The notes under the pieces are model-generated. The model did not search any database and was not told where the DNA came from. It worked only from the letters and a program-made list of their open reading frames with translations. 39,436 nt of DNA from a virus (Duplodnaviria > Heunggongvirae > Uroviricota > Caudoviricetes), in the IMG/VR virus record IMGVR_UViG_2537561944_000032; one strand, given 5' to 3'. This document shows, piece by piece, positions 1 through 39,436 of the stretch. The first letter of the stretch is position 1; each line of letters begins with the position of its first letter. The position numbers were made by a program, and so were the translations under genes.

Positions 1-549
1 ATGCAATTTAATATCCCTACGTTGCTTACACTGTTCCGTGTCATCCTTATCCCATTCTTTGTATTGGTCTTTTATCTGCCTGTCACCTGGTCGCCGTTTG
101 CCGCCGCGCTCATTTTCTGCGTCGCGGCGGTGACTGACTGGTTCGATGGTTTTCTGGCACGCCGCTGGAACCAGAGTACCCGGTTTGGTGCTTTCCTTGA
201 CCCTGTAGCAGATAAAGTTCTCGTGGCTATCGCCATGGTGCTGGTAACCGAGCATTATCACAGCTGGTGGGTGACCCTACCGGCGGCAACGATGATCGCC
301 CGTGAAATTATTATTTCTGCGCTACGCGAATGGATGGCGGAGTTGGGTAAACGCAGTAGCGTGGCTGTCTCCTGGATTGGGAAAGTGAAAACCACTGCCC
401 AGATGGTGGCGTTGGCCTGGCTGCTGTGGCGTCCGAACATTTGGGTTGAGTACGCCGGTATTGCACTTTTCTTTGTGGCTGCGGTACTGACTCTGTGGTC
501 AATGTTGCAATATTTGAGCGCTGCGCGTGCAGATTTGCTTGATCAGTGA
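1..549 (+). CDS. pgsA: CDP-diacylglycerol--glycerol-3-phosphate 3-phosphatidyltransferase (phosphatidylglycerophosphate synthase), complete 182 aa
   Basis: Full ORF with polytopic membrane character and the CDP-alcohol phosphotransferase motif region (DWFDGFLAR...[11 protein letters not shown]); length and sequence match E. coli PgsA as I recall it; followed by the glyW-cysT-leuZ tRNA cluster as in E. coli K-12. Confidence 0.93.
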
Positions 550-599
550 TCGTTTCGGCGTAATTTTCAGCAAACGATCAAAAGTGGTGAAAAATATCG

Positions 600-627
600 T
601 TGACTCATCGCGCCAGGTAAGTAGAAT
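600..627 (+). promoter_or_regulatory. sigma70-type promoter of the tRNA operon (-35 TTGACT, 16-bp spacer, -10 TAGAAT)
   Basis: TTGACT at 600-605 and TAGAAT at 622-627, about 75 bp upstream of the first tRNA, with an A/T-rich tract upstream. Confidence 0.6.
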
Positions 628-700
628 GCAACGCATCGAACGGCGGCACTGATTGCCAGACGATAATAAAATCAAGTGATTAACTGATTGCTTGATGAAT

Positions 701-776
<76 letters not shown>

Positions 777-830
777 GTTTAAAAGACATCGGCGTCAAGC
801 GGATGTCTGGCTGAAAGGCCTGAAGAATTT

Positions 831-904
831 GGCGCGTTAACAAAGCGGTTATGTAGCGGATTGCAAATCCGTCTAGTCCGGTTCGACTCCGGAACGCGCC
901 TCCA
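831..904 (+). tRNA. cysT: tRNA-Cys (anticodon GCA)
   Basis: 74-nt sequence ggcgcgttaacaaagcggttatgtagcggattgcaaatccgtctagtccggttcgactccggaacgcgcctcca; GCA anticodon; CCA encoded. Confidence 0.95.
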
Positions 905-916
905 CTTTCTTCCCGA

Positions 917-1003
917 GCCCGGATGGTGGAATCGGTAGACACAAGGGATTTAAAATCCCTCGGCGTTCGCGCTGTGCGGGTTCAAGTCCCGCTCCGGGTA
1001 CCA
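917..1003 (+). tRNA. leuZ: tRNA-Leu (anticodon TAA), long variable arm
   Basis: 87-nt sequence gcccggatggtggaatcggtagacacaagggatttaaaatccct...gggttcaagtcccgctccgggtacca; class II tRNA with TAA anticodon. Confidence 0.95.
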
Positions 1004-1044
1004 TGGGAAAGATAAGAATAAAATCAAAGCAATAAGCAGTGTCG

Positions 1045-1072
1045 TGAAACCACCTTCGGGTGGTTTTTTCGT
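1045..1072 (+). terminator. rho-independent terminator of the tRNA operon
   Basis: Hairpin aaaccacc-ttcg-ggtggttt followed by a T-run (ggtggttttttcg). Confidence 0.7.
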
Positions 1073-1541
1073 ATTTGTATTTTGTGCAATGGCGGTAGAG
1101 TGGCGATGGTGTGGCGATATGCAGAAACAATGGTAGTGCACGTGCTGTTTAAACTCTAAGGATGAAGCAGAATTCTTCTGCAGCTCCTCCGTATTTCGCA
1201 TAGTGAACCAGGACCTCTGTTAAACAAAAATTTTTCTGGGATTTTTTCACTCGACTTCATTTTTCCTCCTGCAATCCACCAACAGGTACCTGCGCTAATC
1301 TATCTTTTTAATCTGACAACATCTTGGGAAAAGGCAAATTCGTCAGATTTACTGTTTTTCTGCTGCCTCGAATGCCGATGTCTGAAGCACTGATAAGAGT
1401 TCTATCTCTTTGATATAGATCTTTTTTTTGATGAATTGCACGACATATTATCGTTATGACACCTTCTTGTTAAAGGTATTGTACTCCTCATCTCGATTTT
1501 ATGATGTGGGCTATGATTGGTTAGTAATAGAGTGTATCGGT

Positions 1542-1823
1542 ATGCGATGTGGTTTATTAATGGCAATCTGCCTTTGTTTAGTATCTTTTAGTGGATATGC
1601 AGCAACAGGAAAGTCTGATGCTCAGATCAAAAAAGAAATAATTAAAGAATCCATTGAATCTTATCCAGGCAATTGTGCGTGTCCTTATAATCATGCAAGG
1701 AATGGTAGTAGATGTGGTGGACGCAGTGCATATAGCCGTAATGGAGGGTATGACGTGGTATGTTATGAGGGTGATGTTACCGATGAAATGATCCGGCAAT
1801 GGAAGCAGGAGAATGCTGAGTAA
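1542..1823 (+). CDS. hypothetical small secreted cysteine-rich protein (signal peptide, about 93 aa mature precursor)
   Basis: ORF 1428..1823; likely start at internal Met (MRCGLLMAICLCLVSFSGYAATG...) giving a signal peptide; C-terminal region is Cys/Gly/Arg-rich; AT-rich context; start codon uncertain. Confidence 0.4.
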   Translation: MRCGLLMAICLCLVSFSGYAATGKSDAQIKKEIIKESIESYPGNCACPYNHARNGSRCGGRSAYSRNGGYDVVCYEGDVTDEMIRQWKQENAE

Positions 1824-1894
1824 TCTCTTTTAACAGGTTTGTTGTGCGAGCATTATGTGCCGTTAACGGTACACTAGCTAGTGATTGTTCCAAA

Positions 1895-1932
1895 AAGAAA
1901 ACCCGCAGTTCTTACGCTGCGGGTTTGTTGTT
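1895..1932. terminator. bidirectional hairpin terminator
   Basis: acccgcag-ttcttacg-ctgcgggt hairpin flanked by A-run upstream and T-rich run downstream; sits downstream of ORF 1542..1823. Confidence 0.5.
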
Positions 1933-2011
1933 CATGTCTGTGAGATAGGGTGCCACTTCAGCCAACCTTAGCAACCGATTGACGGGGGATTGCTCCCCCG
2001 TCGCGGTTTCC

Positions 2012-2152
2012 TTACTGCTTACACTGTAAGAACGCCGCAAACTCCGCTCCCCAGAAGCTCATCCGTATTTCACACAGCGAACCGCGTAGCATCCAGATGA
2101 TGAGGATTACCGTCACGCAGAACGTGATGGCTGTAAGCGATTTTTGCGACAT
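2012..2152 (-). CDS. Hok/Gef-family type I toxin-like small membrane peptide (46 aa)
   Basis: Translation MSQKSLTAITFCVTVILIIWMLRGSLCEIRMSFWGAEFAAFLQCKQ: single TM segment followed by the SLCE(I/L)R and AAF motifs shared with Hok/HokA/Gef as I recall them; GGAG RBS 8 nt upstream of ATG; stable hairpin (cgggggagcaatcccccg) immediately after the stop. Below the 60-aa ORF-track cutoff, found by manual translation. Confidence 0.6.
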   Translation of the reverse strand: MSQKSLTAITFCVTVILIIWMLRGSLCEIRMSFWGAEFAAFLQCKQ

Positions 2153-2342
2153 AGCGCTTGCTCCTTTGTTGGAGAGGCGCTAACCTATCACTTGCTTAAG
2201 GTAGATATGTTAGGGCCTCGGTTAAACAGAAATGTTTTCCGGGGCCTTTCCACATCCGGCCTTCGGGTATTCCTCCGACCATCAGCCGAAAGGCACCCGC
2301 GGGTAATCTATCGTTTTTTTGTTACTCCGGCAATTCTGCCTG

Positions 2343-2603
2343 TTAATTCTGAGGTAAAGGCAAACTCATCTGATTGTTTCCCCTGTGTGAAGCTGGCAGC
2401 TCATGCCACGGGATACCTTCCGAAGAGTGAACGCCGGAGGCGTGTTTTGATGTGAATTTATGGAAAGCTTCCAGTGTTGAGAAGCATACGCCGCATTCCA
2501 GGTTGTTACACTGGTAATACTTTTGCCGCACAGTGTTTGAATCGTTTTCCGGACGACTGGTGCGGATTCGGGCAGATGCGCCACAAAGCGGACAACGGAA
2601 CAT
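2343..2603 (-). CDS. ogr: Ogr/Delta-family zinc-finger late-gene transcription activator
   Basis: N-terminus MFRCPLCGASARIRTSR...YYQCNNLECGVCF has the C4 zinc-finger spacing of P2 Ogr (MFHCPLC...); sits downstream of D on the same strand as in P2. Confidence 0.8.
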   Translation of the reverse strand: MFRCPLCGASARIRTSRPENDSNTVRQKYYQCNNLECGVCFSTLEAFHKFTSKHASGVHSSEGIPWHELPASHRGNNQMSLPLPQN

Positions 2604-2889
2604 AGCGACCTCCCTTAACGTGGTGCTGCCGCTATTCTAAGTTGTAATAGCTCAGACTCCAACTGACAGTTTGCGCAGCCAGAATACAATCAAACCTAGC
2701 GGTACGCTTTGTGCGAAGAGCGGAAGTTCGCAACTCCAACAACTTTGATAACCTCCGCATAAATGGAAATCGGTTGCTTACATAAGTTTATTGGCTGAGC
2801 ATATCGGGAAGCAAGCGGGCAGTGCCATCTTATCTGTTACAATCCCGAAATGATTGTTCAGCCCGCTTTTTCTAACAGCATGTAAACAT

Positions 2890-4029
2890 TCAGCTGCAAA
2901 TTTCGTTGTTGCTGCATGTTATCTCTTCAAGTGCAGCGGCGTTATAATCAACGGAATGATCAACCTGTGATGTAGGTCTGCCAAAAAATTCAACCCCTGA
3001 CATAATCATGTTGCCGATATTCTCTCGCTGTTTATCACTGAGCCTGTCCCACCACTCAGGGGATGAATATGTATTTTCGGCCTTTGTGAAGAAAAAATAC
3101 AGAAGGGTATTGAACATCCTGTTAGCTGGGATCTTAATTAGTGTCCGTATAAAACGTCTGATAATTGTTGAAGTTCTCAGCCAACTGAACACTACATATC
3201 CCTTACCTCCGCAGGAAAAAGCATTGAAACATACTTGTTCCGCCGACACTGTAAGATCGCTCAAATCCTGAATTTTGGTCCCATCGAAATCCCTCTCCGG
3301 TGAAAGAATTGACGAAACTACAATTGGTAAAGGCTCTGCAAAAGTGAAGATAACACTTTCAATTTCTGAAAATTGCCTGCTAAGTAGGATGCGGTCGAGG
3401 CTAGTTTTAAGATTATTTAATTCAATTATTGCTGCATTTAAGCCACTTTGGTGCTGGTCGATTAATTTCTGAATATAATACTGTTCAACTTGTAGCTTTC
3501 CTTTATCGGCATTTTTAGCAAAATCAGAAGATAGCACTCCCCCTTCTTTGGCATAAATTTCTTTAGACAATGAACGAAACATTAAGGCAAAGCACTGCTC
3601 GTCCGTGCCTGTAAATTTTTCGTTCTCTAGGCATGAAAATAAGATTCTGTCATGAACTGCACAAAATCCTGTAAAAGTGGATGCCTGATTGATACCGATC
3701 TTCTCGGGAAGCCATTTTCCGTTGTTTCTCATCAGGCTTGCTAAGTTCATTATCACCCCCATGACGTGATTGCTGGAGTCGGCGATCGCCTTAAGGCTAC
3801 TGCTCTTAGATATCGTATGCGCCTGAACGATGCGTTTATCACAATCTTCGTGCATGGATGCTGGCGCATAACATGCCTTTCTCTGCGAGAGAGACTTTGA
3901 AAATTTCAGTGCCTCGGCTTTGGATACCGGAGTTTCACGATCTCGACCAAGATGGCACTTTTTATACTTAAGTCCTGAATTACACCAGCACTTATCATTT
4001 CTTCCTAATTTCACTTTATTGTTTCCCAC
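2890..4029 (-). CDS. hypothetical protein with N-terminal SEC-C metal-binding motif (379 aa), cargo gene in AT-rich island
   Basis: ORF begins ...GRNDKCWCNSGLKYKKCH (CxC-x8-CH SEC-C motif); remainder has no family I recognise; region is markedly AT-rich relative to flanking phage genes; inserted between D and ogr, which are adjacent in P2. Start codon uncertain (GTG at 4029 or downstream GTG). Confidence 0.6.
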   Translation of the reverse strand: MGNNKVKLGRNDKCWCNSGLKYKKCHLGRDRETPVSKAEALKFSKSLSQRKACYAPASMHEDCDKRIVQAHTISKSSSLKAIADSSNHVMGVIMNLASLMRNNGKWLPEKIGINQASTFTGFCAVHDRILFSCLENEKFTGTDEQCFALMFRSLSKEIYAKEGGVLSSDFAKNADKGKLQVEQYYIQKLIDQHQSGLNAAIIELNNLKTSLDRILLSRQFSEIESVIFTFAEPLPIVVSSILSPERDFDGTKIQDLSDLTVSAEQVCFNAFSCGGKGYVVFSWLRTSTIIRRFIRTLIKIPANRMFNTLLYFFFTKAENTYSSPEWWDRLSDKQRENIGNMIMSGVEFFGRPTSQVDHSVDYNAAALEEITCSNNEICS

Positions 4030-5279
4030 GAAATTAATGTTCTATAACAAAAACACTTATCGAAAATAGGTGTAATTTATCACTCCGGCAGCTAAAAGAT
4101 CATCTGCCACATGCACGATAATAAATCTTCCTTGCGTCATCATCTCCCTCTGTTCTTAAATCAGGTGTTGCCTGTGTGCGGAGGATTCGCGAAGTACAGT
4201 AGCCGAAATGCATGATCTTACCCATCAATGGTGAGCACGCGATAATAAGTGAGTCCCTAATTGACCACTCATGGCAATACAACTTCAACCAGCATTCATG
4301 ACCACTATCCGTGGATTAACTGTTACATAAGCAACACCTGCTCTAGGCACAAAGCGGGCTGCCAGATTGGGTCTGGCACTGTGCTGTGAGTGTGTCAGTT
4401 CTGGTTTGAGTCAATACATCTAATTTGCTCATTCTGTTTCTGCTATCCATTCCGGGATTTTTGCTTCAAGCTCAAGCTGTGTGGTAAAGCCGCTGTTATC
4501 AATGGTGTGCTCGGCTTTTGCAATAATCCAGTCCTGATTATCGATGTCACTTTTGAAGCCTGTCACCGTGCCATGCATTTCGGGATAGAGTTCTGCGCGT
4601 CCACGCGCCAGCGTGATGGAGAATGATGCGGCTCCGCGTTGTAGCTGCTGCCACTTTGCCGCCGCTGCACGTCTTGCTGCCTGCTCGTTCTGATAAGTCT
4701 TGCGTAACACAAACACGTTGCCTTCCGCACCTTCCATATAGTCACCTTCACGGCTGCTGCTTTTCTCCTTTTTCGGTTTGCGGCGTTTCACGCTGACTTT
4801 TTTCTTTTCCCGTAATTAAGATCAAGCCAGTAAGCACGTACCCCCGTATACGCTTCGCGGTCAGCAATGCGGAACTGATGGCGATCGCCACTGCTGCGCG
4901 TGATGGCGAACGATGGCAACGGCTGGCCCTGTGCGTTCACGCCACCGCCTGGCATGATGAATAACAGATTACTGCTTTTTACCGTAGTGATTGCGCCCAG
5001 CATTTCCGCCATGCGCGTAAGGAAGGACATGTCGCTTTCTTCGGTCTGGTCGGCGTGGTCGATTTCAATATCCATCAGCATTTCGCTGATTTGTGGTTTC
5101 AGACCGTACCGATGAGCGATGGCGGATACCACGCGCTCAACGGTCACATCATGCCAGGACACCTCACGTTTAACGTTAAATTCATCCCGAAAATCTGCGC
5201 TTCTGGCTGAAACAGTCAGCCTGTCCGGCGGTCCTTCGTGAGCGATTTCATCAACAATGTAAGTGCCTTTTTCTGTCAG

Positions 5280-5306
5280 TGAGGTAGCCTGAGTTTAACG
5301 GACACT
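5280..5306 (+). repeat. IS left terminal inverted repeat
   Basis: tgaggtagcctgagtttaacggacact; matches reverse complement of 6517-6543 at about 19/27 positions, including the terminal TGAGGT and the CGGACACT block. Confidence 0.7.
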
Positions 5307-5343
5307 CCTTCCTGAAATAGAATGGCATCAGAAGGAGCTAATA

Positions 5344-5646
5344 ATGAGCAGAAAAACCCAACGTTACTCTAAAGAGTTCAAAGCCGAAGCTGTCAGAACG
5401 GTTCTTGAAAATCAACTTTCGATCAGTGAAGGCGCTTCCCGATTATCTCTTCCTGAAGGCACTTTAGGACAATGGGTTACCGCCGCCAGAAAAGGGCTCG
5501 GTACTCCTGGTTCCCGCACGGTGGCTGAACTGGAATCTGAAATTCTGCAACTGCGTAAGGCGTTAAATGAAGCTCGCCTTGAGCGAGATATATTAAAAAA
5601 AGCAACAGCGTATTTTGCACAGGAGTCGCTGAAAAATACGCGTTAA
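5344..5646 (+). CDS. IS3-family transposase OrfA (HTH DNA-binding, 100 aa)
   Basis: MSRKTQRYSKEFKAEAVRTV...LERDILKKATAYFAQES; typical IS3 OrfA with leucine zipper; contains slippery A_AAA_AAA_G at 5595-5602. Confidence 0.85.
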   Translation: MSRKTQRYSKEFKAEAVRTVLENQLSISEGASRLSLPEGTLGQWVTAARKGLGTPGSRTVAELESEILQLRKALNEARLERDILKKATAYFAQESLKNTR

Positions 5647-6500
5647 TCGAACAATGGCGACAACAATTTCCCATTGAAGCGATGTGTCAGGTATTTGGTG
5701 TATCCAGGAGCGGTTATTACAACTGGGTACAGCATGAACCCTCAGACAGAAAACAAAGTGATGAGCGGCTAAAACTGGAGATTAAGGTGGCACATATCCG
5801 CACTCGCGAAACATATGGAACCCGGCGGCTCCAGACGGAGCTGGCAGAGAATGGCATCATCGTTGGTCGTGACCGACTGGCACGTCTTCGTAAGGAGCTA
5901 AGGCTACGCTGTAAGCAGAAACGCAAGTTCAGAGCGACTACGAACTCGAACCACAATCTGCCAGTTGCGCCAAATCTGCTGAACCAGACGTTCGCTCCTA
6001 CAGCACCAAATCAGGTCTGGGTGGCGGACCTGACGTATGTTGCCACACAGGAGGGATGGTTGTACCTCGCTGGCATCAAAGATGTTTATACGTGCGAAAT
6101 TGTCGGCTACGCCATGGGAGAGCGCATGACAAAAGAGCTGACAGGTAAAGCTCTGTTTATGGCGCTCAGGAGCCAGCGCCCACCTGCCGGGCTAATCCAC
6201 CACTCTGATCGAGGTTCACAGTACTGCGCATACGATTACCGGGTCATACAGGAGCAGTTTGGTCTGAAAACATCAATGTCGCGTAAAGGTAACTGTTACG
6301 ACAACGCTCCGATGGAAAGCTTCTGGGGAACGCTGAAAAATGAGAGCCTGAGCCACTATCGTTTTAATAACCGGGATGAAGCCATCTCAGTAATACGGGA
6401 ATACATTGAGATTTTCTACAATCGTCAGCGTCGTCACTCTCGTCTGGGGAATATCTCCCCGGCAGCCTTCAGGGAAAAATATCATCAGATGGCTGCTTAA
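5595..6500 (+). CDS. IS3-family transposase OrfB (DDE integrase domain), expressed as OrfAB fusion by -1 frameshift
   Basis: Frame -1 relative to orfA is open from 5583; reads KKSNSVFCTGVAEKYALIEQWRQQFPIEAMCQVFGVSRSGYY... with DDE catalytic core (HSDRGSQY...NAPMESFWGTLK); start coordinate given at the slip site. Confidence 0.8.
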   Translation, partial: KKSNSVFCTGVAEKYALIEQWRQQFPIEAMCQVFGVSRSGYYNWVQHEPSDRKQSDERLKLEIKVAHIRTRETYGTRRLQTELAENGIIVGRDRLARLRKELRLRCKQKRKFRATTNSNHNLPVAPNLLNQTFAPTAPNQVWVADLTYVATQEGWLYLAGIKDVYTCEIVGYAMGERMTKELTGKALFMALRSQRPPAGLIHHSDRGSQYCAYDYRVIQEQFGLKTSMSRKGNCYDNAPMESFWGTLKNESLSHYRFNNRDEAISVIREYIEIFYNRQRRHSRLGNISPAAFREKYHQMAA

Positions 6501-6516
6501 AAAAAGAACAAATGGT

Positions 6517-6543
6517 AGTGTCCGCTATTGCCAGTACACCTCA
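6517..6543 (+). repeat. IS right terminal inverted repeat
   Basis: agtgtccgctattgccagtacacctca; terminal CA; its last three bases create the TGA stop that truncates the gpD N-terminal fragment. Confidence 0.7.
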
Positions 6544-6952
6544 CAGCGGTTCTCCTTTCCAGCCAATGAGAACCGTCAGGCGCGCGCCCCGTGGCGGTAG
6601 CTGCAACTGACCATCCGCATCATCCAGCGTGATGGTGAGCAGGTCCGCTTCAAATCCCCGGTTGTCGGTCAGTGACAGGCTCATCAGGCGCTCTGCCACG
6701 CCGGACAGTGTTTCCCCCTCCGCGAGAATATCAAAATCCGGCATTTTCACGGGGTCTGTGCTCTGACTGAGCAATTGCATGGTGGTATCGGTCATCTGTT
6801 CCCTCCCTGTGCGGCATGGTCGCATGTGCGTGCATAGGGGGTTACTGCTTTTTGTTGTCGCCGTGGCGGGAGAACGGCGCAGGGGTGAGATTACGCGCGT
6901 GGTGGGTGATGATTGTTGCCGAATCATTTAACGGATACAAGGGGCTGAAGCT

Positions 6953-12528: not shown

Positions 12529-12684
12529 TTTAACGTATGTCGCCAATTTCCTGATGAAGGTGACTGGCGACTTGCTGTTGTATGTCCTTCTCAGAAAATT
12601 GTTTTTGAATAACAAACAACAGGATTTTATAATCTCTTAACCTTATAATATGTGTGGTCTGAAATAATAATTAAGGAGATTATC

Positions 12685-13257
12685 GTGCTGTCTTACTTAA
12701 TGGCAATTCACTTTGCTTTATTTGGGGACTCTACTAATTTAAAAAACTTCTGGAAATATGAAGTAATTCGGCGGAAACGTATGGATATCTGGAGGCTTTT
12801 AAGAGAGAAAAAACAGCGTAACCGGAATTTCCTTTTCTGGTGGCGGTTGGCTAACGAAATGTATATTAATGGTAATAAATTACATAAGAAAGCAGCCAAA
12901 AAGTTAAACAGTAAAATAATTAACAAATTTGGTTGTGAAATTGGATTGGGCGCAAATATTGGAAAAGGGTTAACAATTCCCCATCATGCTGGAATTGTTG
13001 TTCATTTTGCTGTTGATGCTGGTGAAAATCTGGTGTTACGACAGAATACTACCATTGGACAGATAGATGGTGACATGCCTGGTTCAAGAGTAAAAATTGG
13101 TAGTAACGTTGATATCGGAGCTAATTGTTGCATCATTGGATTATCACGTAAAATTGGGGATAATGTAAAAATAGGTGCAATGTCTTTTATAAATAAAGAT
13201 ATACCATCGAACTGCACATATATAACTAAAAAGAGCGGTGTTGTATTGTATAAATAG
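12685..13257 (+). CDS. hexapeptide-repeat (left-handed beta-helix) acetyltransferase, CysE/LacA/WcaB-like; cargo gene
   Basis: Repeated [LIV]-G-x-x-x-x-I hexapeptide units (IGKGLTIPHHAGIVV...VKIGSNVDIGANCCIIG...KIGDNVKIGAMSF); GTG start at 12685 with AAGGAG RBS (ATG at 12700 alternative); region 12570-13260 is strongly AT-rich; followed by hairpin terminator. Confidence 0.75.
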   Translation: MLSYLMAIHFALFGDSTNLKNFWKYEVIRRKRMDIWRLLREKKQRNRNFLFWWRLANEMYINGNKLHKKAAKKLNSKIINKFGCEIGLGANIGKGLTIPHHAGIVVHFAVDAGENLVLRQNTTIGQIDGDMPGSRVKIGSNVDIGANCCIIGLSRKIGDNVKIGAMSFINKDIPSNCTYITKKSGVVLYK

Positions 13258-19480: not shown

Positions 19481-21358
19481 TTACGCTGCAGGACTATTTA
19501 TTTCCAGCACCAGACTTTCTATCTCAACGCCATACGTTGCATTTTTGGTAATATCCGTCAGCGTCAGTGCATTCAGCCCCAGTGTCAGACTGTCTTTTAT
19601 GACCTGGAATGCCGGGCCAGCCACTCCATTCAGTTTCGGAGTAACCGTGGCACTGCTGGCGGTGAACACCAGCTCCAGCGTCTGCCAGTCGTTACTGTAA
19701 TTCCCGAACTCGCCCAACTTTGTGTTTCCTGCTTTCTTGTGATGCATCAGATTCAGTTTGCCGTCTGTGGTCTGGGTGAAGAACGACATCAGGAACGGGT
19801 TACCAGTCCCGGTCATCGCCACGACGTCAGGTAACGCTACATCGGTATACAGATAAATTCCCAGACCGAACTGATTGTTGGTCAGTGCGCCTGACAGGCG
19901 GAACTTACAGGTCAGTCTGCCGCCCTGTGTCAGCAGGGTAATTGCGTCATCCACCGGATGCGTCAGGGACCAGGTTTTATTGCTCTGCTTGGTGATCTTA
20001 AATACACCATCTGACAACTGAATTCCGCCATCCTTAATGCTCCAGCCCTGCGCAGCAGCCTCTCCGGCTGCCGGCAGCAGGGAGATTGTGCGAACGGACG
20101 TATCTGCAGACGGACCCGATGGCGTGTTGCCGCCGGGCGAGGGTTTGATTTCCGGTGCCTTACCACTGATGAAGGCTAAGGTGCGACCGGCTACGTTCAG
20201 AATAGCGGTTGCCATACGATCCGGAATAATGCTCCTGCGCGCCCATGAACTGAAATGCGTCTGGCGATTTGATGATACCCAGTTTTTGTTCGTTCGGGAT
20301 GCCGAACCGTAATATCCCTCACTTGCAGCATCCGGATCTTCCGTTGGTGCGTTGGTGGAGGTATTGTTGCCACTACCATCGGTCAGGAATGGCACAAAGA
20401 AAACGTTGTCGCTCTCCCTGTTTTTGTACGCCCCGTAAATGGTGTCGTACTGCGTGCCGTAGGTGTTTTTCCAGTAATACGTCGTGTCACCACAAATCCA
20501 TGGCACACTTGCCGCTCTGCCTCCATGACACTGCGTGTTAAACTCGGTAATGTCCGCACGAAACTGTTTCAGCATGGCCGCAAACAGCGGAGGTTGCTGT
20601 GAGTACGTAGCGGCGCTCATGTCAAATTCGCCCTGCATCCAGCATACGGCCAGCAGCATGTTTTTTGGGTTTTTCTGCAATGCGGCCTTCGTGCGCAAAA
20701 TCAGGTCCTGATATAAAGGTTTACCCACACCCCAGCGAGCCGAATCCTGACTGGCTCCTGTGGACTCGCTGAATGTCCCCTCCGCGCCCTGGGTGAATGC
20801 CGAACCACCACGACAGCATGGAACCAGTAAAATCCCGGCATTCTGTGGAATGTAAGGCAACAGGCGTTTGGCAATATGCAAGCCCTGTCCGACACAGCCA
20901 TACTGCCCTTTGCTCAGGTCTGCATTCGGGTGATTCAGTACGCTCATATCCTGAACATCATGCAGGCAGTGATCTGCCGGAATGATGTCGTTAAATGCGC
21001 ATGCTTTACCACCGGGAGTCACTGTGTTGCGACGGGCCAGTTGCTTAATGCGTGGGTGGGGCGCATCGTAAGAATCCGGCAGCGGCATTCCCTCACCATA
21101 TGACATGGCATTGGATTGACCAGCAAGTACCACCACGTAATACCACTCCGGCACGCTGCCGTGCTGGGGGGAATCAGGTGAGATGTCTGTAGTGCCATCG
21201 GCCACCATTGCCTGCATTAGATACCACGGGGTGCCGGGTTCGTAGGCAACCCGCGTCTCCCCCTGAAGATGCCACCCTTTCGCAAGATGTTCATTCACCT
21301 TTTGAGTCAGTTCAGCCTGTGTCATGGCTGTAATCAGTGCAAAGTTCTTACTGGTCAT
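19481..21358 (-). CDS. prophage NanS-p-like protein: N-terminal DUF1737 + SGNH-hydrolase/sialate O-acetylesterase-like domain + C-terminal beta-rich domain (625 aa); cargo gene
   Basis: N-terminus MTSKNFALITAMTQAELTQKVNEHLAKGW resembles DUF1737; VVLAGQSNAMSYG contains the GQSN motif of the DUF303/SASA esterase family; inserted between lysC and R, which are adjacent in P2. Confidence 0.7.
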   Translation of the reverse strand: MTSKNFALITAMTQAELTQKVNEHLAKGWHLQGETRVAYEPGTPWYLMQAMVADGTTDISPDSPQHGSVPEWYYVVVLAGQSNAMSYGEGMPLPDSYDAPHPRIKQLARRNTVTPGGKACAFNDIIPADHCLHDVQDMSVLNHPNADLSKGQYGCVGQGLHIAKRLLPYIPQNAGILLVPCCRGGSAFTQGAEGTFSESTGASQDSARWGVGKPLYQDLILRTKAALQKNPKNMLLAVCWMQGEFDMSAATYSQQPPLFAAMLKQFRADITEFNTQCHGGRAASVPWICGDTTYYWKNTYGTQYDTIYGAYKNRESDNVFFVPFLTDGSGNNTSTNAPTEDPDAASEGYYGSASRTNKNWVSSNRQTHFSSWARRSIIPDRMATAILNVAGRTLAFISGKAPEIKPSPGGNTPSGPSADTSVRTISLLPAAGEAAAQGWSIKDGGIQLSDGVFKITKQSNKTWSLTHPVDDAITLLTQGGRLTCKFRLSGALTNNQFGLGIYLYTDVALPDVVAMTGTGNPFLMSFFTQTTDGKLNLMHHKKAGNTKLGEFGNYSNDWQTLELVFTASSATVTPKLNGVAGPAFQVIKDSLTLGLNALTLTDITKNATYGVEIESLVLEINSPAA

Positions 21359-29609: not shown

Positions 29610-30200
29610 TCAGGTGTTATTTTTATCTGTCGTCAGTGGGCTAAACCATCCACGATTTACATCGCAGGACTGATGCGTTCTGTCCTCGTGTTTCTCCTGC
29701 CACAATGCTTTTCCGCCAGCCTTTATGATGGCTCTTTCAACATCCCGCTCGTATCGCAAGGGCTGAAATACGTCATTAATGAAATATTCGCTTATGTCCG
29801 GAAGCGATACTGCAAAATTATTTGTTTGTTGCGCCGTCCTGCTATGCAGCAAAGCGGCATACTTTAATGCGTCCTGTGCTTTCTGGAATTTAAGTGCATA
29901 GTCAGTGGCGATTTTTTCCAGTTCAGCGATTCGGTTGTCTTTGGTTTCCAGCCAATCAAGTAGCGCCAATACTTCAGGATCCCCGACATCCAACACTGTT
30001 ACGCGTGATTTTTCATAATGTTCGTCGGCAAGAGTTCGGCCAATTTTGAAATCTCCATCATCACCATAACCGGAGCAGGCATAAACAACCTGTGCTCCAG
30101 ATATTCGCTGAATTGACATTTCCTCGCCGCAAATAGGGCATTTCGGTACTGGCACAGGTGAATAACGTTCACGTAATGCCTGATAGTTGATTTCGCTCAT
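29610..30200 (-). CDS. hypothetical protein, Ead/Ea22-like N-terminus with CxxC...C zinc-ribbon-like motif (196 aa)
   Basis: Starts MSEINYQALRERYS...KCPICGEEMSIQRISGAQVVYACSG; AAGGAG RBS; last gene of the parM-parR-containing unit. Confidence 0.55.
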   Translation of the reverse strand: MSEINYQALRERYSPVPVPKCPICGEEMSIQRISGAQVVYACSGYGDDGDFKIGRTLADEHYEKSRVTVLDVGDPEVLALLDWLETKDNRIAELEKIATDYALKFQKAQDALKYAALLHSRTAQQTNNFAVSLPDISEYFINDVFQPLRYERDVERAIIKAGGKALWQEKHEDRTHQSCDVNRGWFSPLTTDKNNT

Positions 30201-30263
30201 TAAGTCGTTCTCCTTGTTTATGTTCTGAGGTGGAGAGCAGGGCGAACTCGCCCTGATGTTTTG

Positions 30264-30575
30264 TTATTCAGGAAATAACGCCCGGATATTTCCGGCCATC
30301 TGACTGGTTATCTGTGCGGTTGATACTGGCTGTGATGCGGGGCGTTCTGTCCTGGTTTGTGTCACTGATAACGCTTCATCACCAGCCCATGCAGCCAGTC
30401 GATAAGCCTCTGCCGGATTCATTTTCAGAAGTGCCAGCCCGGCCAGAAAAGCCACGCGTTGGCCGCTTTTGCGGGCTTCTGGTGTAAGGCTGTCCAGCCA
30501 GGCGCATGCTTCTCCTTCGTTCTTGACGGCGGTGGGCTTCAGATAGAAACTTATCCGTCTGGTTGGAGTCGTCAT
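30264..30575 (-). CDS. ParR/StbB-like centromere-binding adaptor (ribbon-helix-helix type)
   Basis: 103 aa from ATG 30575 (AAGGAG RBS, 2 nt after parM-like stop). RRISFYLKP...LDSLTPEARKSGQRVAFLAGLALL and C-terminal IRALFPE resemble plasmid R1 ParR as I recall it. Confidence 0.65.
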   Translation of the reverse strand: MTTPTRRISFYLKPTAVKNEGEACAWLDSLTPEARKSGQRVAFLAGLALLKMNPAEAYRLAAWAGDEALSVTQTRTERPASQPVSTAQITSQMAGNIRALFPE

Positions 30576-30579
30576 TGGT

Positions 30580-31539
30580 TTACTCCTTGTCCATTGCGTA
30601 CAGCCCATTAACCAGAGCAAACTGTGGCACCCCGTCCGCGATGAAAGTCGCATTAACTCCGCAGGCTTCGCGGATAGCGGGTGCCACAATCTCCGCCCCT
30701 CCACCGACAACCATCACCCGCCCGTAACCCGAAAAACCCGCCAGCGCGCGGATCACGCGTTGTTTCAGTGTTTCTTCCTTTTCACGAATAACCGCCATCA
30801 GGCTGGCGTAATGCGCGTCATTGTGGATGTGCTGGCGCAGCCAGGCTTCATCATGGCGATGTTCGATAATGGTATTGGCGATGTGGTGACTGGTGCGCAT
30901 ACCGTTAGTGGCCATCACCGACAGTACGGCATCGGCCATCAGAGAAACGCCCACGTGTGGATCGCAAAACACCTGGCTGATACCTGCCAGTTGCCCCTGA
31001 ACCTTTGCCACATCCAGAGTGGTTCCGCCCAAATCCACAATCAGCAGGGATTCAAACGGACTCATGTCAGCCAGTGCCTTAAAGCCAGCCGGAATGGATT
31101 CAGGCATAACCCGTACGTTACGGATAGTGAATGCTTCGCCGTTCTGGTACTCCACCGGGCGCATGACGTTCGCTTTTTTGCGGTTGATGTTGGCCATGTC
31201 CGGCTGTGCGTTTGTATCGAAATACTCGCTCAGTGGCAGGGTGACAACCACATCCACTTCCTGTGGTGTGATGCCTGATTTGACCAGCGCGTGATGAATG
31301 GCAATTATATTCACATCGCTGTACTGGTATTGCGTGTCGGTCGTCTGGACAAAGCGATCGCTGACCGGATCAAAACCATAGCGCACGCCATCAAGCATGT
31401 AGTTCGCGGGCTGCGTGCCACCGAACGGCGCAGACCATTCCGACTTGAAGCTGTTCGGGCTGATGGCGTTGCGGCGTTCGCCGTTCTCAGTCCATGCCAG
31501 CTTGATGTTGGTGGAGCCGTCGTCGATACAAATTTTCAT
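30580..31539 (-). CDS. ParM/StbA-like actin-family ATPase
   Basis: N-terminus MKICIDDGSTNIKLAW...ISPNSFKSEW...QYSDVNIIAIHHALVKSG closely parallels plasmid R1 ParM (FIDDGSTNIKLQW...ISPNSFKREW...QYSDVNVVAVHHALL) as I recall it; also the adjacent-Gly phosphate-binding loop DLGGTT. Confidence 0.8.
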   Translation of the reverse strand: MKICIDDGSTNIKLAWTENGERRNAISPNSFKSEWSAPFGGTQPANYMLDGVRYGFDPVSDRFVQTTDTQYQYSDVNIIAIHHALVKSGITPQEVDVVVTLPLSEYFDTNAQPDMANINRKKANVMRPVEYQNGEAFTIRNVRVMPESIPAGFKALADMSPFESLLIVDLGGTTLDVAKVQGQLAGISQVFCDPHVGVSLMADAVLSVMATNGMRTSHHIANTIIEHRHDEAWLRQHIHNDAHYASLMAVIREKEETLKQRVIRALAGFSGYGRVMVVGGGAEIVAPAIREACGVNATFIADGVPQFALVNGLYAMDKE

Positions 31540-36479: not shown

Positions 36480-36683
36480 TTAGCTGTTAGCCAAAGCGTC
36501 TTTTAACATCGCCACAAGGTTTACTTCAGGCTTTTCCATTTTGGCGCGTTTGGGGCGGATAATAATTCGACCGTCAGCCAACATCTTTTTGCATGTATTA
36601 AGAGGGATACCTGTTATCTCTGCATATTTCTGCAGGGATACATAGGGGGCATTCACATTGATATTGATGGTTATACCTGACAT
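36480..36683 (-). CDS. small HTH DNA-binding protein, excisionase/Cox/AlpA-like (67 aa)
   Basis: AGGAGG RBS; YVSLQKYAEITGIPLNTCKKMLADGRI resembles the helix-turn-helix of Xis/AlpA-type proteins; second gene of the early rightward-type operon. Confidence 0.5.
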   Translation of the reverse strand: MSGITININVNAPYVSLQKYAEITGIPLNTCKKMLADGRIIIRPKRAKMEKPEVNLVAMLKDALANS

Positions 36684-36981: not shown

Positions 36982-37386
36982 ATGAAAAATGATATTGGTC
37001 AGCGGTTGCGTGAGGAAAGGGAAAGATTGGGACTTAGTCAAGTTGCCATGAGCGACATTGGTGGAGTCAAAAAGCTAACTCAGCTTAGATATGAGAAAGG
37101 AGATAGCTTTCCTGATGCTGCGTATTTGGCAGCGCTGTCTCGTTTTGGCCTTGATGTTCAGTATGTTGTGTTGGGAATTCACTCACCTGAAACTTATAAC
37201 GATGATGAGCAGGAGTTGATTACTCGCTTTCGAGCAGCTTCGTTAGATGTGAAAAACGCGGTGATCGGGGCTTTAAAAGGTGCGATCAGTGAAAAGGAAA
37301 CTCAGCCATCAGGACGTGAGTTAAATATTTCTGGTGGTAATAACCGTATCGCTGGTCGTGACTATAACGAAACTAAGGGTAGGTGA
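36982..37386 (+). CDS. CI-like repressor, XRE-family helix-turn-helix (134 aa)
   Basis: N-terminal HTH (QRLREERERLGLSQVAMSDIGGVKKLTQLRYEKGDSFPDAAYLAALSRFGLDVQYVVLG); divergent from early operon and on the same strand as int, like P2 C / 186 cI. Confidence 0.75.
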   Translation: MKNDIGQRLREERERLGLSQVAMSDIGGVKKLTQLRYEKGDSFPDAAYLAALSRFGLDVQYVVLGIHSPETYNDDEQELITRFRAASLDVKNAVIGALKGAISEKETQPSGRELNISGGNNRIAGRDYNETKGR

Positions 37387-37401: not shown

Positions 37402-38052
37402 ATGGCCGTCAACTCAAACGGTTCAAACAATCGCGTTGCTGGGCGTGATTTTCACGAAAAGAATATTCAGATAGAGCGATATGATGGTTCTCATACCGTC
37501 AATATCGCAATCCCTTCGAATAATGATGATGACGATCGCCCTTTGCTTAAGGCTCAGCGTAAGGAGCTAAATAGCTTGGTTGCTGCTATTGCAGAAGCTA
37601 GCAATACTGAAGCGTTTATTATTTGGCAAAAAGTACATGCGGAGATTGGTGTAGCTGGTATTGATGATATGACAGTAAATCAATATAAAACAGCGGAGAG
37701 TTTTCTGCATGCAATGCTTGAGCGATGTAAAGATCATGATGCCTGTAAGACTCTTGTAAGTTTATTACTACGTAACAGTGAAGACTGTGGACTTCGACAA
37801 AAACTTCTGCGGTATTGCCATATCAATTTCGGTACAGGACGTTTAAACGATCTTACTCGTTCTCAGTTACAGTCTGCATTGTCGTGGTTAGAGCAACAAT
37901 CGGCATCAAGTCACACAGAGAGTTCGGCCTTACCAGAAGTTCGACTTCGTGCTTCAGAATTAATCCGACTTTATCCAAAAGAAATAATATTCTTTATCTG
38001 CGTAGGGGTTTTGGTAGGCGGTGCCATTTCTAGGGTGTTTTTTAATTTGTAA
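37402..38052 (+). CDS. hypothetical protein with C-terminal transmembrane anchor (216 aa); lysogeny-operon cargo
   Basis: In the same frame as the repressor ORF, separated by TGA-TAG-TAG and a GGGAGGTGA RBS; N-terminus repeats the repressor C-terminal motif (SNNRVAGRDFHE versus GNNRIAGRDYNE); C-terminal hydrophobic helix IIFFICVGVLVGGAISRVFF. Confidence 0.55.
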   Translation: MAVNSNGSNNRVAGRDFHEKNIQIERYDGSHTVNIAIPSNNDDDDRPLLKAQRKELNSLVAAIAEASNTEAFIIWQKVHAEIGVAGIDDMTVNQYKTAESFLHAMLERCKDHDACKTLVSLLLRNSEDCGLRQKLLRYCHINFGTGRLNDLTRSQLQSALSWLEQQSASSHTESSALPEVRLRASELIRLYPKEIIFFICVGVLVGGAISRVFFNL

Positions 38053-38081
38053 TCTTACTTGAGCTAAATTGAGGTAATGAT

Positions 38082-38429
38082 ATGAAAGTAAAAAAGGTTC
38101 AACTATTAGTTACTTTTTTATCTATGTTTTCTTTTTCCGCCGTCGCAATGCCTTTTAAAACTATTGAACGTGAGAGTTTCAATGGGGTATGGCCATTTAA
38201 TACTGATGAGGTTCAATTACAGTGTCTTGATGGTAATCCTTATGTGATGAATTTTGACGATAATAAGTTATATGCGCTTACAGGTTTAGCTCGAATAAAA
38301 GGTAAAACATTTGGTGCGTTACCGTTAGATAACAATAATCCATTTTGGCTAGATAATGATGCCGCCCCAGGGTTAAAAAAGAGTCTGGGGGATGTCACTA
38401 AGGCTGCATTTGATTTATGTGATAAGTAA
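38082..38429 (+). CDS. small secreted/periplasmic protein (signal peptide; possibly DUF2511/YebY-like), 115 aa
   Basis: Classical signal peptide MKVKKVQLLVTFLSMFSFSAVA; two Cys (possible disulfide); located between repressor module and int. Confidence 0.55.
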   Translation: MKVKKVQLLVTFLSMFSFSAVAMPFKTIERESFNGVWPFNTDEVQLQCLDGNPYVMNFDDNKLYALTGLARIKGKTFGALPLDNNNPFWLDNDAAPGLKKSLGDVTKAAFDLCDK

Positions 38430-38434
38430 CTAAA

Positions 38435-39436
38435 ATGTCGGTTCGTAAGATTCCATCAGGTAAATGGCTTTGCGAATGTTATCCCTACGGGGCATCGGGA
38501 AAACGCATTCGTAAACAGTTTGCGACAAAAAGTGAGGCGCTCTCTTATGAGCGCCGTTTAATGAATAGTAGAGTTGGAGACGAGTTTCAAGATGGTTCTG
38601 GTCCTCGTCTTTCTGAGTTGATTGCTCGTTGGTTTGAGATGTACGGTAAAACCTTGTCCTCTGGTGCAGAGCGCAAAGTCAAACTTGAGGCGATTTGTTC
38701 CAGGCTGGGGGATCCATTTGCTTCTCAGTTTGACAAAAATATGTTTGCTACTTATCGGGAAAGAAGGCTATCAGGAGAATGGAATCCCAAGGGGAAGAAA
38801 AAACTTAGTGAAGCAACCGTTAATCGCGAGCAGTCATATCTACATGCTGTTTTTGCCGAACTGAAGCGCCTTGGGGAGTGGTCTGGTGAAAACCCCCTGA
38901 CTGGTATTCGCAAGTTTCGTGAGGAAGAAAAGGAACTGGCGTTTCTGTATGTAGATGAGATTGAACGCCTTCTGATTGCGTGTGATGAGTCACGGAATAA
39001 AGATTTGGGGGTTGTTGTCCGTATTGGGCTTGCGACTGGTGCTCGGTGGAGTGAAGCTGAAGGATTAAAGCAATCTCAAGTACTGCCCGGTCGAATCACA
39101 TTTGTTAAAACTAAAGGAAAGAAGAACCGCACTGTACCGATTTCACCTCAATTGCAGGCTATGCTTCCTCAAAAACGAGGAGCGCTATTTTCACCATGTT
39201 ATGAGGCTTTTGACGCTGCAATTAAGAGAGCGAAGATCGAGCTTCCTGATGGGCAATTAACTCATGTGCTACGTCACACGTTTGCCAGTCATTTTATGAT
39301 GCGGGGCGGAAATATTCTTGTGTTGCAAAAAATACTGGGGCATAGCGATATAAAAATGACTATGCGTTATGCGCATTTTGCTCCAGGTCATTTAGAGGCT
39401 GCTGTTGAATTGAACCCTTTTGACAATAGAGGGTAA
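38435..39436 (+). CDS. int: tyrosine-type site-specific integrase (P2 Int-like), 333 aa
   Basis: C-terminal catalytic region with R...HVLRHTFAS...MRYAHF (R-H-R-Y signature); ORF ends at the last base of the window, so the adjacent att site is not visible. Confidence 0.9.
   Translation: MSVRKIPSGKWLCECYPYGASGKRIRKQFATKSEALSYERRLMNSRVGDEFQDGSGPRLSELIARWFEMYGKTLSSGAERKVKLEAICSRLGDPFASQFDKNMFATYRERRLSGEWNPKGKKKLSEATVNREQSYLHAVFAELKRLGEWSGENPLTGIRKFREEEKELAFLYVDEIERLLIACDESRNKDLGVVVRIGLATGARWSEAEGLKQSQVLPGRITFVKTKGKKNRTVPISPQLQAMLPQKRGALFSPCYEAFDAAIKRAKIELPDGQLTHVLRHTFASHFMMRGGNILVLQKILGHSDIKMTMRYAHFAPGHLEAAVELNPFDNRG

Follow-up and report, generated by a model that had tools for sequence, protein, structure and literature searches.

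Left junction and nearly whole body of a P2-like prophage, very probably inserted in the tRNA gene leuZ

The stretch of DNA analysed here (the window; 39,436 nucleotides in all) starts in pgsA, runs through a tRNA cluster and ends on a phage integrase gene. The genes that mark out its two ends are given below.

1–549: pgsA, at the window start
701–776, plus strand: glyW (ARAGORN)
831–904, plus strand: cysT (ARAGORN)
917–1003, plus strand: leuZ, tRNA-Leu(UAA), intact, at attL (ARAGORN; Rfam tRNA, 57.7 bits; K-12 annotation)
2343–2603, minus strand: ogr, late-gene activator (Pfam Ogr_Delta, E = 5e-14; annotation)
36480–36683, minus strand: Cox/Apl-like excisionase-repressor (phrog_575, E = 1e-27)
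36982–37386, plus strand: immunity repressor, helix-turn-helix (phrog_8 and phrog_4 transcriptional repressor families; annotation)
38435–39436, plus strand: int, tyrosine integrase of the HP1/186 type (Pfam Int_N and Phage_integrase)

The tRNA gene leuZ is the final gene of the glyW-cysT-leuZ operon, and ogr is the last gene of the phage backbone toward attL. The lysogenic operon has the repressor as its first gene and int as its last, and the final base of the window (39436) is the end of the int stop codon. The cox-like gene and the repressor complete a recombination and immunity module. An earlier note on this DNA had pointed out that the tRNA cluster adjoins the ogr end while int lies at the far window edge, and these coordinates (leuZ 917–1003, ogr 2343–2603, int 38435–39436) bear it out.

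As a reference we used 49 kb of the E. coli O26:H11 FWSEC0001 chromosome (locus L001), to which the window is 99.96% identical over 1–5279 and 6544–39436. The sole large difference is a 1264-bp IS600, flanked by a 3-bp target duplication, within tail gene D; except for this insertion the window's copy of the prophage is full length. With gene D interrupted, the prophage might still excise but would not be expected to form plaques. The reference carries a full set of P2-like genes between leuZ and yecA, ogr being nearest leuZ and int nearest yecA; as annotated, the order is D, sheath, tube, tape measure, baseplate, lysis, capsid, terminase, portal, replication endonuclease, cox, repressor and int. 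P2-type gene order is present, and with the att site between int and ogr these two genes come to lie at opposite prophage ends. Many E. coli O26:H11 chromosomes contain the stretch from the end of leuZ to ogr (1004–2343) with 100% identity.

The element is bracketed by a perfect direct repeat (121 of 121 positions), one copy of which lies at 949–1069 of the window and the other at 40569–40689 of the reference. The parts of the copy in the window are as follows.

949–1069, plus strand: att identity block, attL copy, 121 bp (repeat with the reference locus; K-12 empty site)
949–955, plus strand: anticodon loop, presumed 7-bp crossover segment (5' limit of the block; the tRNA-Leu segment of the HP2 attP begins at the same TTTAAAATCCCT)
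1004–1069, plus strand: copy of the 3'ETS-leuZ trailer (66 of 67 nt identical to K-12 ncRNA b4759)

The block's 5' edge coincides with the start of the leuZ anticodon loop (TTTAAAA). From there the block takes in the 3' 55 nt of leuZ and then the 3'ETS-leuZ trailer and terminator up to the T-run, including the operon terminator hairpin at 1046–1067 found by terminator scan; the sole difference from b4759 is the last base of the T-tail. Within the window the leuZ 3' end occurs once: as the earlier note had observed for 1004–2343, a second copy is absent from that interval, and it is equally absent from the rest of the window. The note had proposed to search past position 39436 for a direct repeat matching the leuZ 3' end, and such a repeat is found in the near-identical reference, where the int stop is followed by 106 bp and then, starting 107 bases after the stop, by the second repeat copy. 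Were the window extended, this attR copy would fall at about 39543–39663, and the 106-bp P arm between int and the repeat, as expected from the near-identical genome, begins AAAAGTGGCGATAAAAAGTGACAATAG. A third copy of the block was not found, there being two in the reference locus and one in the window. The IS600 insertion in gene D of the window was absent from all complete genomes in the collection when its junctions were searched for, so that attR of the window's own strain is taken from relatives of 99.96% identity.

It is a rule for genomic islands that the regenerated tRNA gene and the displaced fragment mark the two ends (PMC4383910). Here the tyrosine integrase gene lies inside the element and adjoins one of its att sites, 106 bp from attR. 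The prophage boundary, which the earlier note had left unresolved, is indeed not resolvable inside the window, but the shared block starts at 949, within leuZ, and ends at 1069, rather than starting at 1004. The apparent oddity of the boundary arises because the window stops about 107 bases short of attR.

The empty site is preserved in K-12 MG1655, where the left flank of attL is followed by one block and then by the right flank of attR into yecA; on the yecA side K-12 and the flank of the element differ by 1 mismatch in 400 bp. We also queried both junctions against a population sample of 5,426 complete E. coli genomes. The attL junction (leuZ and the first 190 bp past the block) was matched in full in 643 of them, and in the other genomes among the matches listed, evenly sampled, the match ends at window positions 1069–1074. 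The attR junction (int end, P arm, block and yecA flank) was matched in full in 513 of the 5,426, and in the other genomes among the matches listed, again evenly sampled, the match starts at the first base of the block (40569 of the reference). Judged from these evenly sampled matches, the break at the repeat edges would hold in the great majority of the genomes (about 4,800 of the 5,426). The comparison with prophage-free strains that had been suggested for this DNA thus comes out with breaks at both repeat edges, in K-12 and in the population queries alike.

These results bear on the reading in which 1004–2343 is ordinary host sequence and the att repeat lies elsewhere, for example near ogr. 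Positions 1004–1069 are identical to K-12 host sequence, as that reading would have it, but in K-12, as in the vast majority of the 5,426 genomes, the yecA flank follows directly on the 121-bp block, and 1070–1895 is carried by only 618 of the 5,426. In all six genomes in which the context was checked (FWSEC0001, O157:H7 SS17, Z1831, NDM2, PSS-08-2 and the window itself), 1070–1895 lies directly beside leuZ, together with a P2-like prophage or a remnant of one. We regard a host origin as exceedingly improbable: an uninterrupted core genome across 1004–2343 is refuted by the K-12 empty site and the population breakpoints, and the possibility raised earlier that 1070–2343 is host DNA fails on the same empty site, present in K-12 and thousands of genomes. 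By these comparisons 1070–2343 is prophage DNA, and 1004–1069, the shared att core, is its only host-like neighbour in the interval.

To the right of the core the interval contains the following features.

1087–1119, plus strand: three tandem Int arm-type sites, CAATGGCGGTA, GAGTGGCGATG and GTGTGGCGATA, in the P' arm (match to the 186 consensus)
1145–1319, minus strand: decayed hok-locus remnant (colinear with the intact locus at 2015–2333)
1542–1823, plus strand: small AT-rich ORF, 93 aa, four Cys, N-terminus resembling a signal peptide (phrog_27544, E = 7e-58)
1899–1926, both strands: bidirectional intrinsic terminator (terminator scan)
2012–2152, minus strand: intact hok-family toxin, 46 aa (Pfam HOK_GEF, PF01848, 34.9 bits against a cut-off of 22)
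2142–2298, minus strand: hok leader/sok antitoxin RNA region, sok-like (Rfam RF01794, 46.7 bits, E = 1e-8, below the gathering score of 59)

The arm-type sites were found with the Int consensus of phage 186, YAYCGCCAYTY, taken from the annotation of NC_001317 and searched as its reverse complement. The three P' sites have 1, 0 and 1 mismatches to this consensus and are spaced 11 bp apart, and the site at 1098 is the only exact 11-mer match in the 39-kb window. In the reconstructed attP there are five sites with at most one mismatch, two after the int stop and three in tandem on the ogr side. Four lineages with P' arms of 87–99% identity have the P' sites in their attL arms as well, with 0–2 base changes and with the TGGCG core and the 11-bp spacing kept. 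A count of the shorter 8-mer RTGGCGRT over the locus was uninformative, the 8-mer being frequent in coding DNA (28 observed against 8.6 expected), and the case for the sites is built instead on the 11-mer consensus together with their position and their tandem 11-bp spacing. We infer from the consensus matches and the recurrence in several lineages that the DNA directly right of the core is an attP arm for this type of integrase, and 1087–1119 would be the part of it that Int recognizes. The integrase itself is 59% identical to HP2 Int, 56% to 186 Int and 39% to P88 Int.

The remainder of the interval appears to be phage cargo. The earlier list of its contents, with a terminator (1046–1067), an AT-rich secreted-protein ORF (1542–1823) and a Hok-like gene (2012–2152), stands in full. 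The decayed hok remnant keeps the leader and the C-terminal coding part ('SLCEIR') but has lost about 128 nt, start codon and membrane helix included. Aligned locally to the intact locus, it scores 82, against 23.9 ± 3.5 for shuffled sequences. The 93-aa ORF, annotated as hypothetical protein WP_001303543.1, had no Pfam or NCBIfam family match and no tblastn match in deposited phages, only the PHROG profile being matched. We consider it a putative small secreted-protein moron. PADLOC assigned none of the cargo genes to a defence system, and the only matches were weak ones to the SEC-C motif. The bidirectional terminator separates this ORF from the hok module, whose toxin also matches phrog_251 ('MokW-like host killing', E = 3e-23). 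From about 1892 to 2343 this module is 92–98% identical in nucleotide sequence to the module adjoining ogr in P88, P884B11, 500465-2 and Chuche, and hok and ogr are contiguous in the deposited genomes of P88-like phages. In PSS-08-2, TagO-like and zinc-ribbon genes replace the 93-aa ORF at the same place, as they do in phage P884B11, and cargo appears to be exchanged in the att-ogr interval of leuZ-integrating P2-like phages. The order from 1070 onward would then be the P' arm with its three Int arm-type sites, the decayed hok, the secreted-protein moron, the terminator, hok/sok and ogr.

Some of these properties would also suit a separate small islet or satellite at 1070–2343, sitting in tandem at leuZ with the P2-like prophage merely adjoining it. 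The stretch is AT-rich and compositionally distinct (GC 0.35–0.42 over 1051–1800), its middle part with the small ORF is without a match in deposited phage genomes, and this middle part is exchanged for other genes in PSS-08-2. A tandem array, however, requires an att copy between its elements, and with two block copies in the reference and one in the window there is none to spare; nor does 1070–2343 have an integrase of its own. Directly beside the core, the arm-type sites at 1087–1119 match the consensus of an integrase, that of 186, to which the Int encoded here is 56% identical, and at the right end the hok module is contiguous with ogr in P88-like phages. The exchange in PSS-08-2 takes place inside conserved flanks, the P' arm on one side and hok-ogr on the other, a pattern that a moron hotspot within a single phage would produce. 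The suggestion that these sequences belong to another islet, which had been raised for this DNA, gives way before the missing third att copy, the arm-type sites beside the core and the hok-ogr contiguity, and we hold a separate islet to be very unlikely. The interval is better read as the attL-proximal end of the prophage.

The remaining question is why int lies so far from the intact tRNA gene, which had been taken as an anomaly. The closest parallel is found in HP2, a Haemophilus phage (Hpunavirus), the attP of which has the same layout as that reconstructed here: int, two arm-type sites, the 3' half of a tRNA-Leu(UAA) gene from TTTAAAATCCCT, sequence from downstream in the operon, and further arm-type sites. 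In both phages the tRNA segment lies downstream of int and is co-oriented with it, so that int adjoins the displaced fragment rather than the intact tRNA, and the core TGGCGRT is common to the arm sites of both. The two differ in host, in backbone (Hpunavirus against Xuanwuvirus here) and in what follows the tRNA-Leu half, which is a spacer and a whole tRNA-Lys gene in HP2 but the 3'ETS-leuZ trailer and terminator here. Phage 186 (Eganvirus, ileY) likewise has its attP between the ogr homologue B and int, with three arm sites toward B and two toward int, and the motif, the numbers and the orientation relative to the backbone are the same here; two of the arm-site pairs in 186 are 11 bp apart, a spacing also found here. 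In contrast, 186 targets a tRNA-Ile gene, has only 36 bp in common with attB and has a predicted crossover near the tRNA 3' end, and its tRNA fragment points toward int, so that int would adjoin the regenerated tRNA. The tRNA fragment in the present phage is inverted relative to the backbone in comparison with 186, and leuZ therefore adjoins ogr. The distance of int from the intact leuZ follows from the orientation of the attP segment, downstream of int and co-oriented with it, and this geometry is a known variant within the integrase family.

Integration can be pictured on this basis. The attP would lie between int and ogr, as in P2, 186 and HP2, and would bear a stretch of 121 bp copied from the host, which follows int and has the same orientation. 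Exchange, presumably in the 7-bp anticodon loop, would join the 5' part of host leuZ to the phage-borne 3' part and so would restore leuZ as an intact gene, complete with trailer and terminator, at the ogr end (attL, 949–1069), while the displaced host 3' half would stay 106 bp downstream of int, adjoining yecA (attR). The crossover is placed in the anticodon loop (949–955) because of the 5' limit of the block and the parallel with HP2, and its position there is presumed by analogy. In the related phage HP1, strand exchange was reportedly mapped experimentally to the anticodon region, by Hauser and Scocca in 1992. The attL copy in O157 differs from the O157 attR copy by one SNP, which is consistent with a crossover left of position 64, although a single SNP cannot map the crossover. 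Sites centred on the anticodon form one major class of tDNA integration sites (PMC4383910).

The same block invites another route of entry, namely RecA-dependent homologous recombination across the 121-bp identity instead of Int-mediated exchange in the anticodon loop. Perfect identity over 121 bp suffices in length for homologous recombination, and the product would be indistinguishable in sequence. Yet the element has an intact int of the HP1/186 type and a gene for a cox-like excisionase, and its core has arm sites to either side; the block starts exactly at the anticodon loop, as in HP2; and the same junctions occur in hundreds of genomes of different lineages. Entry by homologous recombination thus seems highly improbable, and we retain site-specific integration by Int.

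Among known elements, P88 and its relatives (Xuanwuvirus) share with the present prophage the hok/sok-ogr-D-tail module (92–98% identical) and the overall gene order, but differ in the integrase (see above). The leuZ-type core is absent from their int-ogr interval, and their attachment site is a different one. In Shiga toxin-producing E. coli (STEC), prophages at leuZ have been reported, among them Sp13 in the O157:H7 strain Sakai (PMC8190617) and conserved prophages in O121:H19 (PMC8767318), and an integrative element has been described at leuZ in O145:H28 (PMC7067040). The O157 leuZ prophage resembles the one described here in the P' arm and small ORF (99.4% identical) and in the int-side junction (98.9% identical), but it is a degraded remnant of about 21 kb without hok, ogr and most morphogenesis genes, and with IS elements instead. 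With the reconstructed 903-bp attP as the query, we found no virion-derived genome with a contiguous leuZ-type attP among deposited phages. The sole phage-database record with this int and P arm is phage 520873 (Xuanwuvirus xv520873), which reaches 97.7% identity across the int end, P arm and core and has the same P2-like gene order; the record includes host yecA, which marks it as a prophage extraction and not as independent proof of an excised form.

Taken together, the window very probably holds almost all of a P2-like prophage inserted in leuZ, together with its left junction, and we are likewise highly confident in assigning it to the Peduoviridae, as a Xuanwuvirus-type prophage that entered leuZ by site-specific tyrosine-recombinase insertion. 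The situation is an ordinary one and is already known from the STEC prophages at this tRNA gene.

One aspect of the attP could reach beyond integration. It holds the whole 3'ETS-leuZ trailer and not just the tRNA 3' half, and in lysogens the trailer is duplicated. In the K-12 literature, the only source on its function, 3'ETS-leuZ is described as an sRNA sponge for RyhB and RybB that is released by processing (cited in PMC7154689). In a lysogen the sponge made from the glyW-cysT-leuZ transcript would be supplied by the phage, and the displaced copy would fall 160 bp beyond int, where the lysogenic operon ends. Its transcription and processing, should they occur, would give lysogens a higher sponge dose and move the thresholds of RyhB and RybB. 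We think this idea unlikely to hold; the simplest reading is that the phage bears the trailer and terminator only to restore the 3' end of the operon.

The practical value of these results lies mainly in correct annotation. The ends of the prophage can be set to the base, on the left at 949/1070 and on the right at the repeat about 107–227 bases past the window end, and both the small secreted-protein gene and the hok module count as cargo of the phage rather than as genes of the host. An int distant from the intact tRNA gene is not a sign of a composite island when the attP bears the tRNA segment downstream of int.

Between the attachment site and the intact hok gene, the content of the prophage changes from one relative to another. 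Where the window carries the 93-aa ORF for a small secreted protein (1542-1823, plus strand), on the att side of hok, strain PSS-08-2 (L008 6346-7990) and phage P884B11 (L005 1089-3660) both carry two other genes, one TagO-like and one of the zinc-ribbon type. Because this pair swaps with the 93-aa ORF, the att-hok interval behaves as a cargo-exchange spot. The neighbouring attP arm, P', holds the remains of a further gene:

1145-1319, minus strand, decayed second hok locus within the conserved P' arm region

Its leader and the C-terminal 'SLCEIR' part of the coding region are kept, while about 128 nt, the start codon and membrane helix among them, have been deleted. Each of the four leuZ-type lineages in the comparison has conserved the decayed locus, and the deletion is therefore old.

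Cargo is also found elsewhere along the prophage:

2890-4029, minus strand, low-GC ORF of 379 aa, flanked by ogr on one side and D on the other, annotated 'YecA family'
12682-13257, plus strand, serine O-acetyltransferase, cargo at the Z/fun position
19481-21358, minus strand, DUF6645 protein of 625 aa, an insertion that separates the lysis genes from tail genes R/S
29610-31539, minus strand, ParM, a partition protein and an Ead/Ea22-like gene, cargo at the old/tin position
37402-38429, plus strand, two extra genes in the lysogenic operon, repressor upstream and int downstream: a membrane protein (216 aa, phrog_5825) and a DUF2511 protein (115 aa, phrog_2950)

The Z/fun and old/tin positions are P2 cargo hotspots. 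The 379-aa ORF is an unusually placed moron whose sole recognisable feature is an N-terminal SEC-C metal-binding motif; it belongs to no PHROG family and drew no convincing match from PADLOC, and we consider it a candidate accessory or defence gene. A PADLOC search with the DUF6645 protein returned zero matches, and phage 520873, a prophage-derived Xuanwuvirus record, differs from the window prophage in lacking a DUF6645 gene at this position. Both extra proteins of the lysogenic operon are likely expressed in the lysogen.

One tail gene is interrupted:

about 4429-6795, minus strand, tail gene D, split by IS600
5280-6543, IS600 of 1264 bp inside D, with a 3-bp target duplication

The prophage of E. 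coli FWSEC0001 lacks this IS600, and the insertion in D was found in no complete E. coli genome of the collection searched. The window copy is probably defective for tail assembly.

At the attachment sites of O157:H7 Z1831, the attL copy of 3'ETS-leuZ carries an A-to-C change at L012 645 (corresponding to window 1012) that is absent from the attR copy; thus in that lineage the expressed sponge copy differs from the ancestral one. In phage 186 (L011 1486-1531), the tRNA-derived fragment is inverted relative to int and ogr/B when compared with the window prophage, whereas the arm sites point the same way in both and the two integrases share 56% identity. The integrase family to which both enzymes belong has no fixed target orientation.
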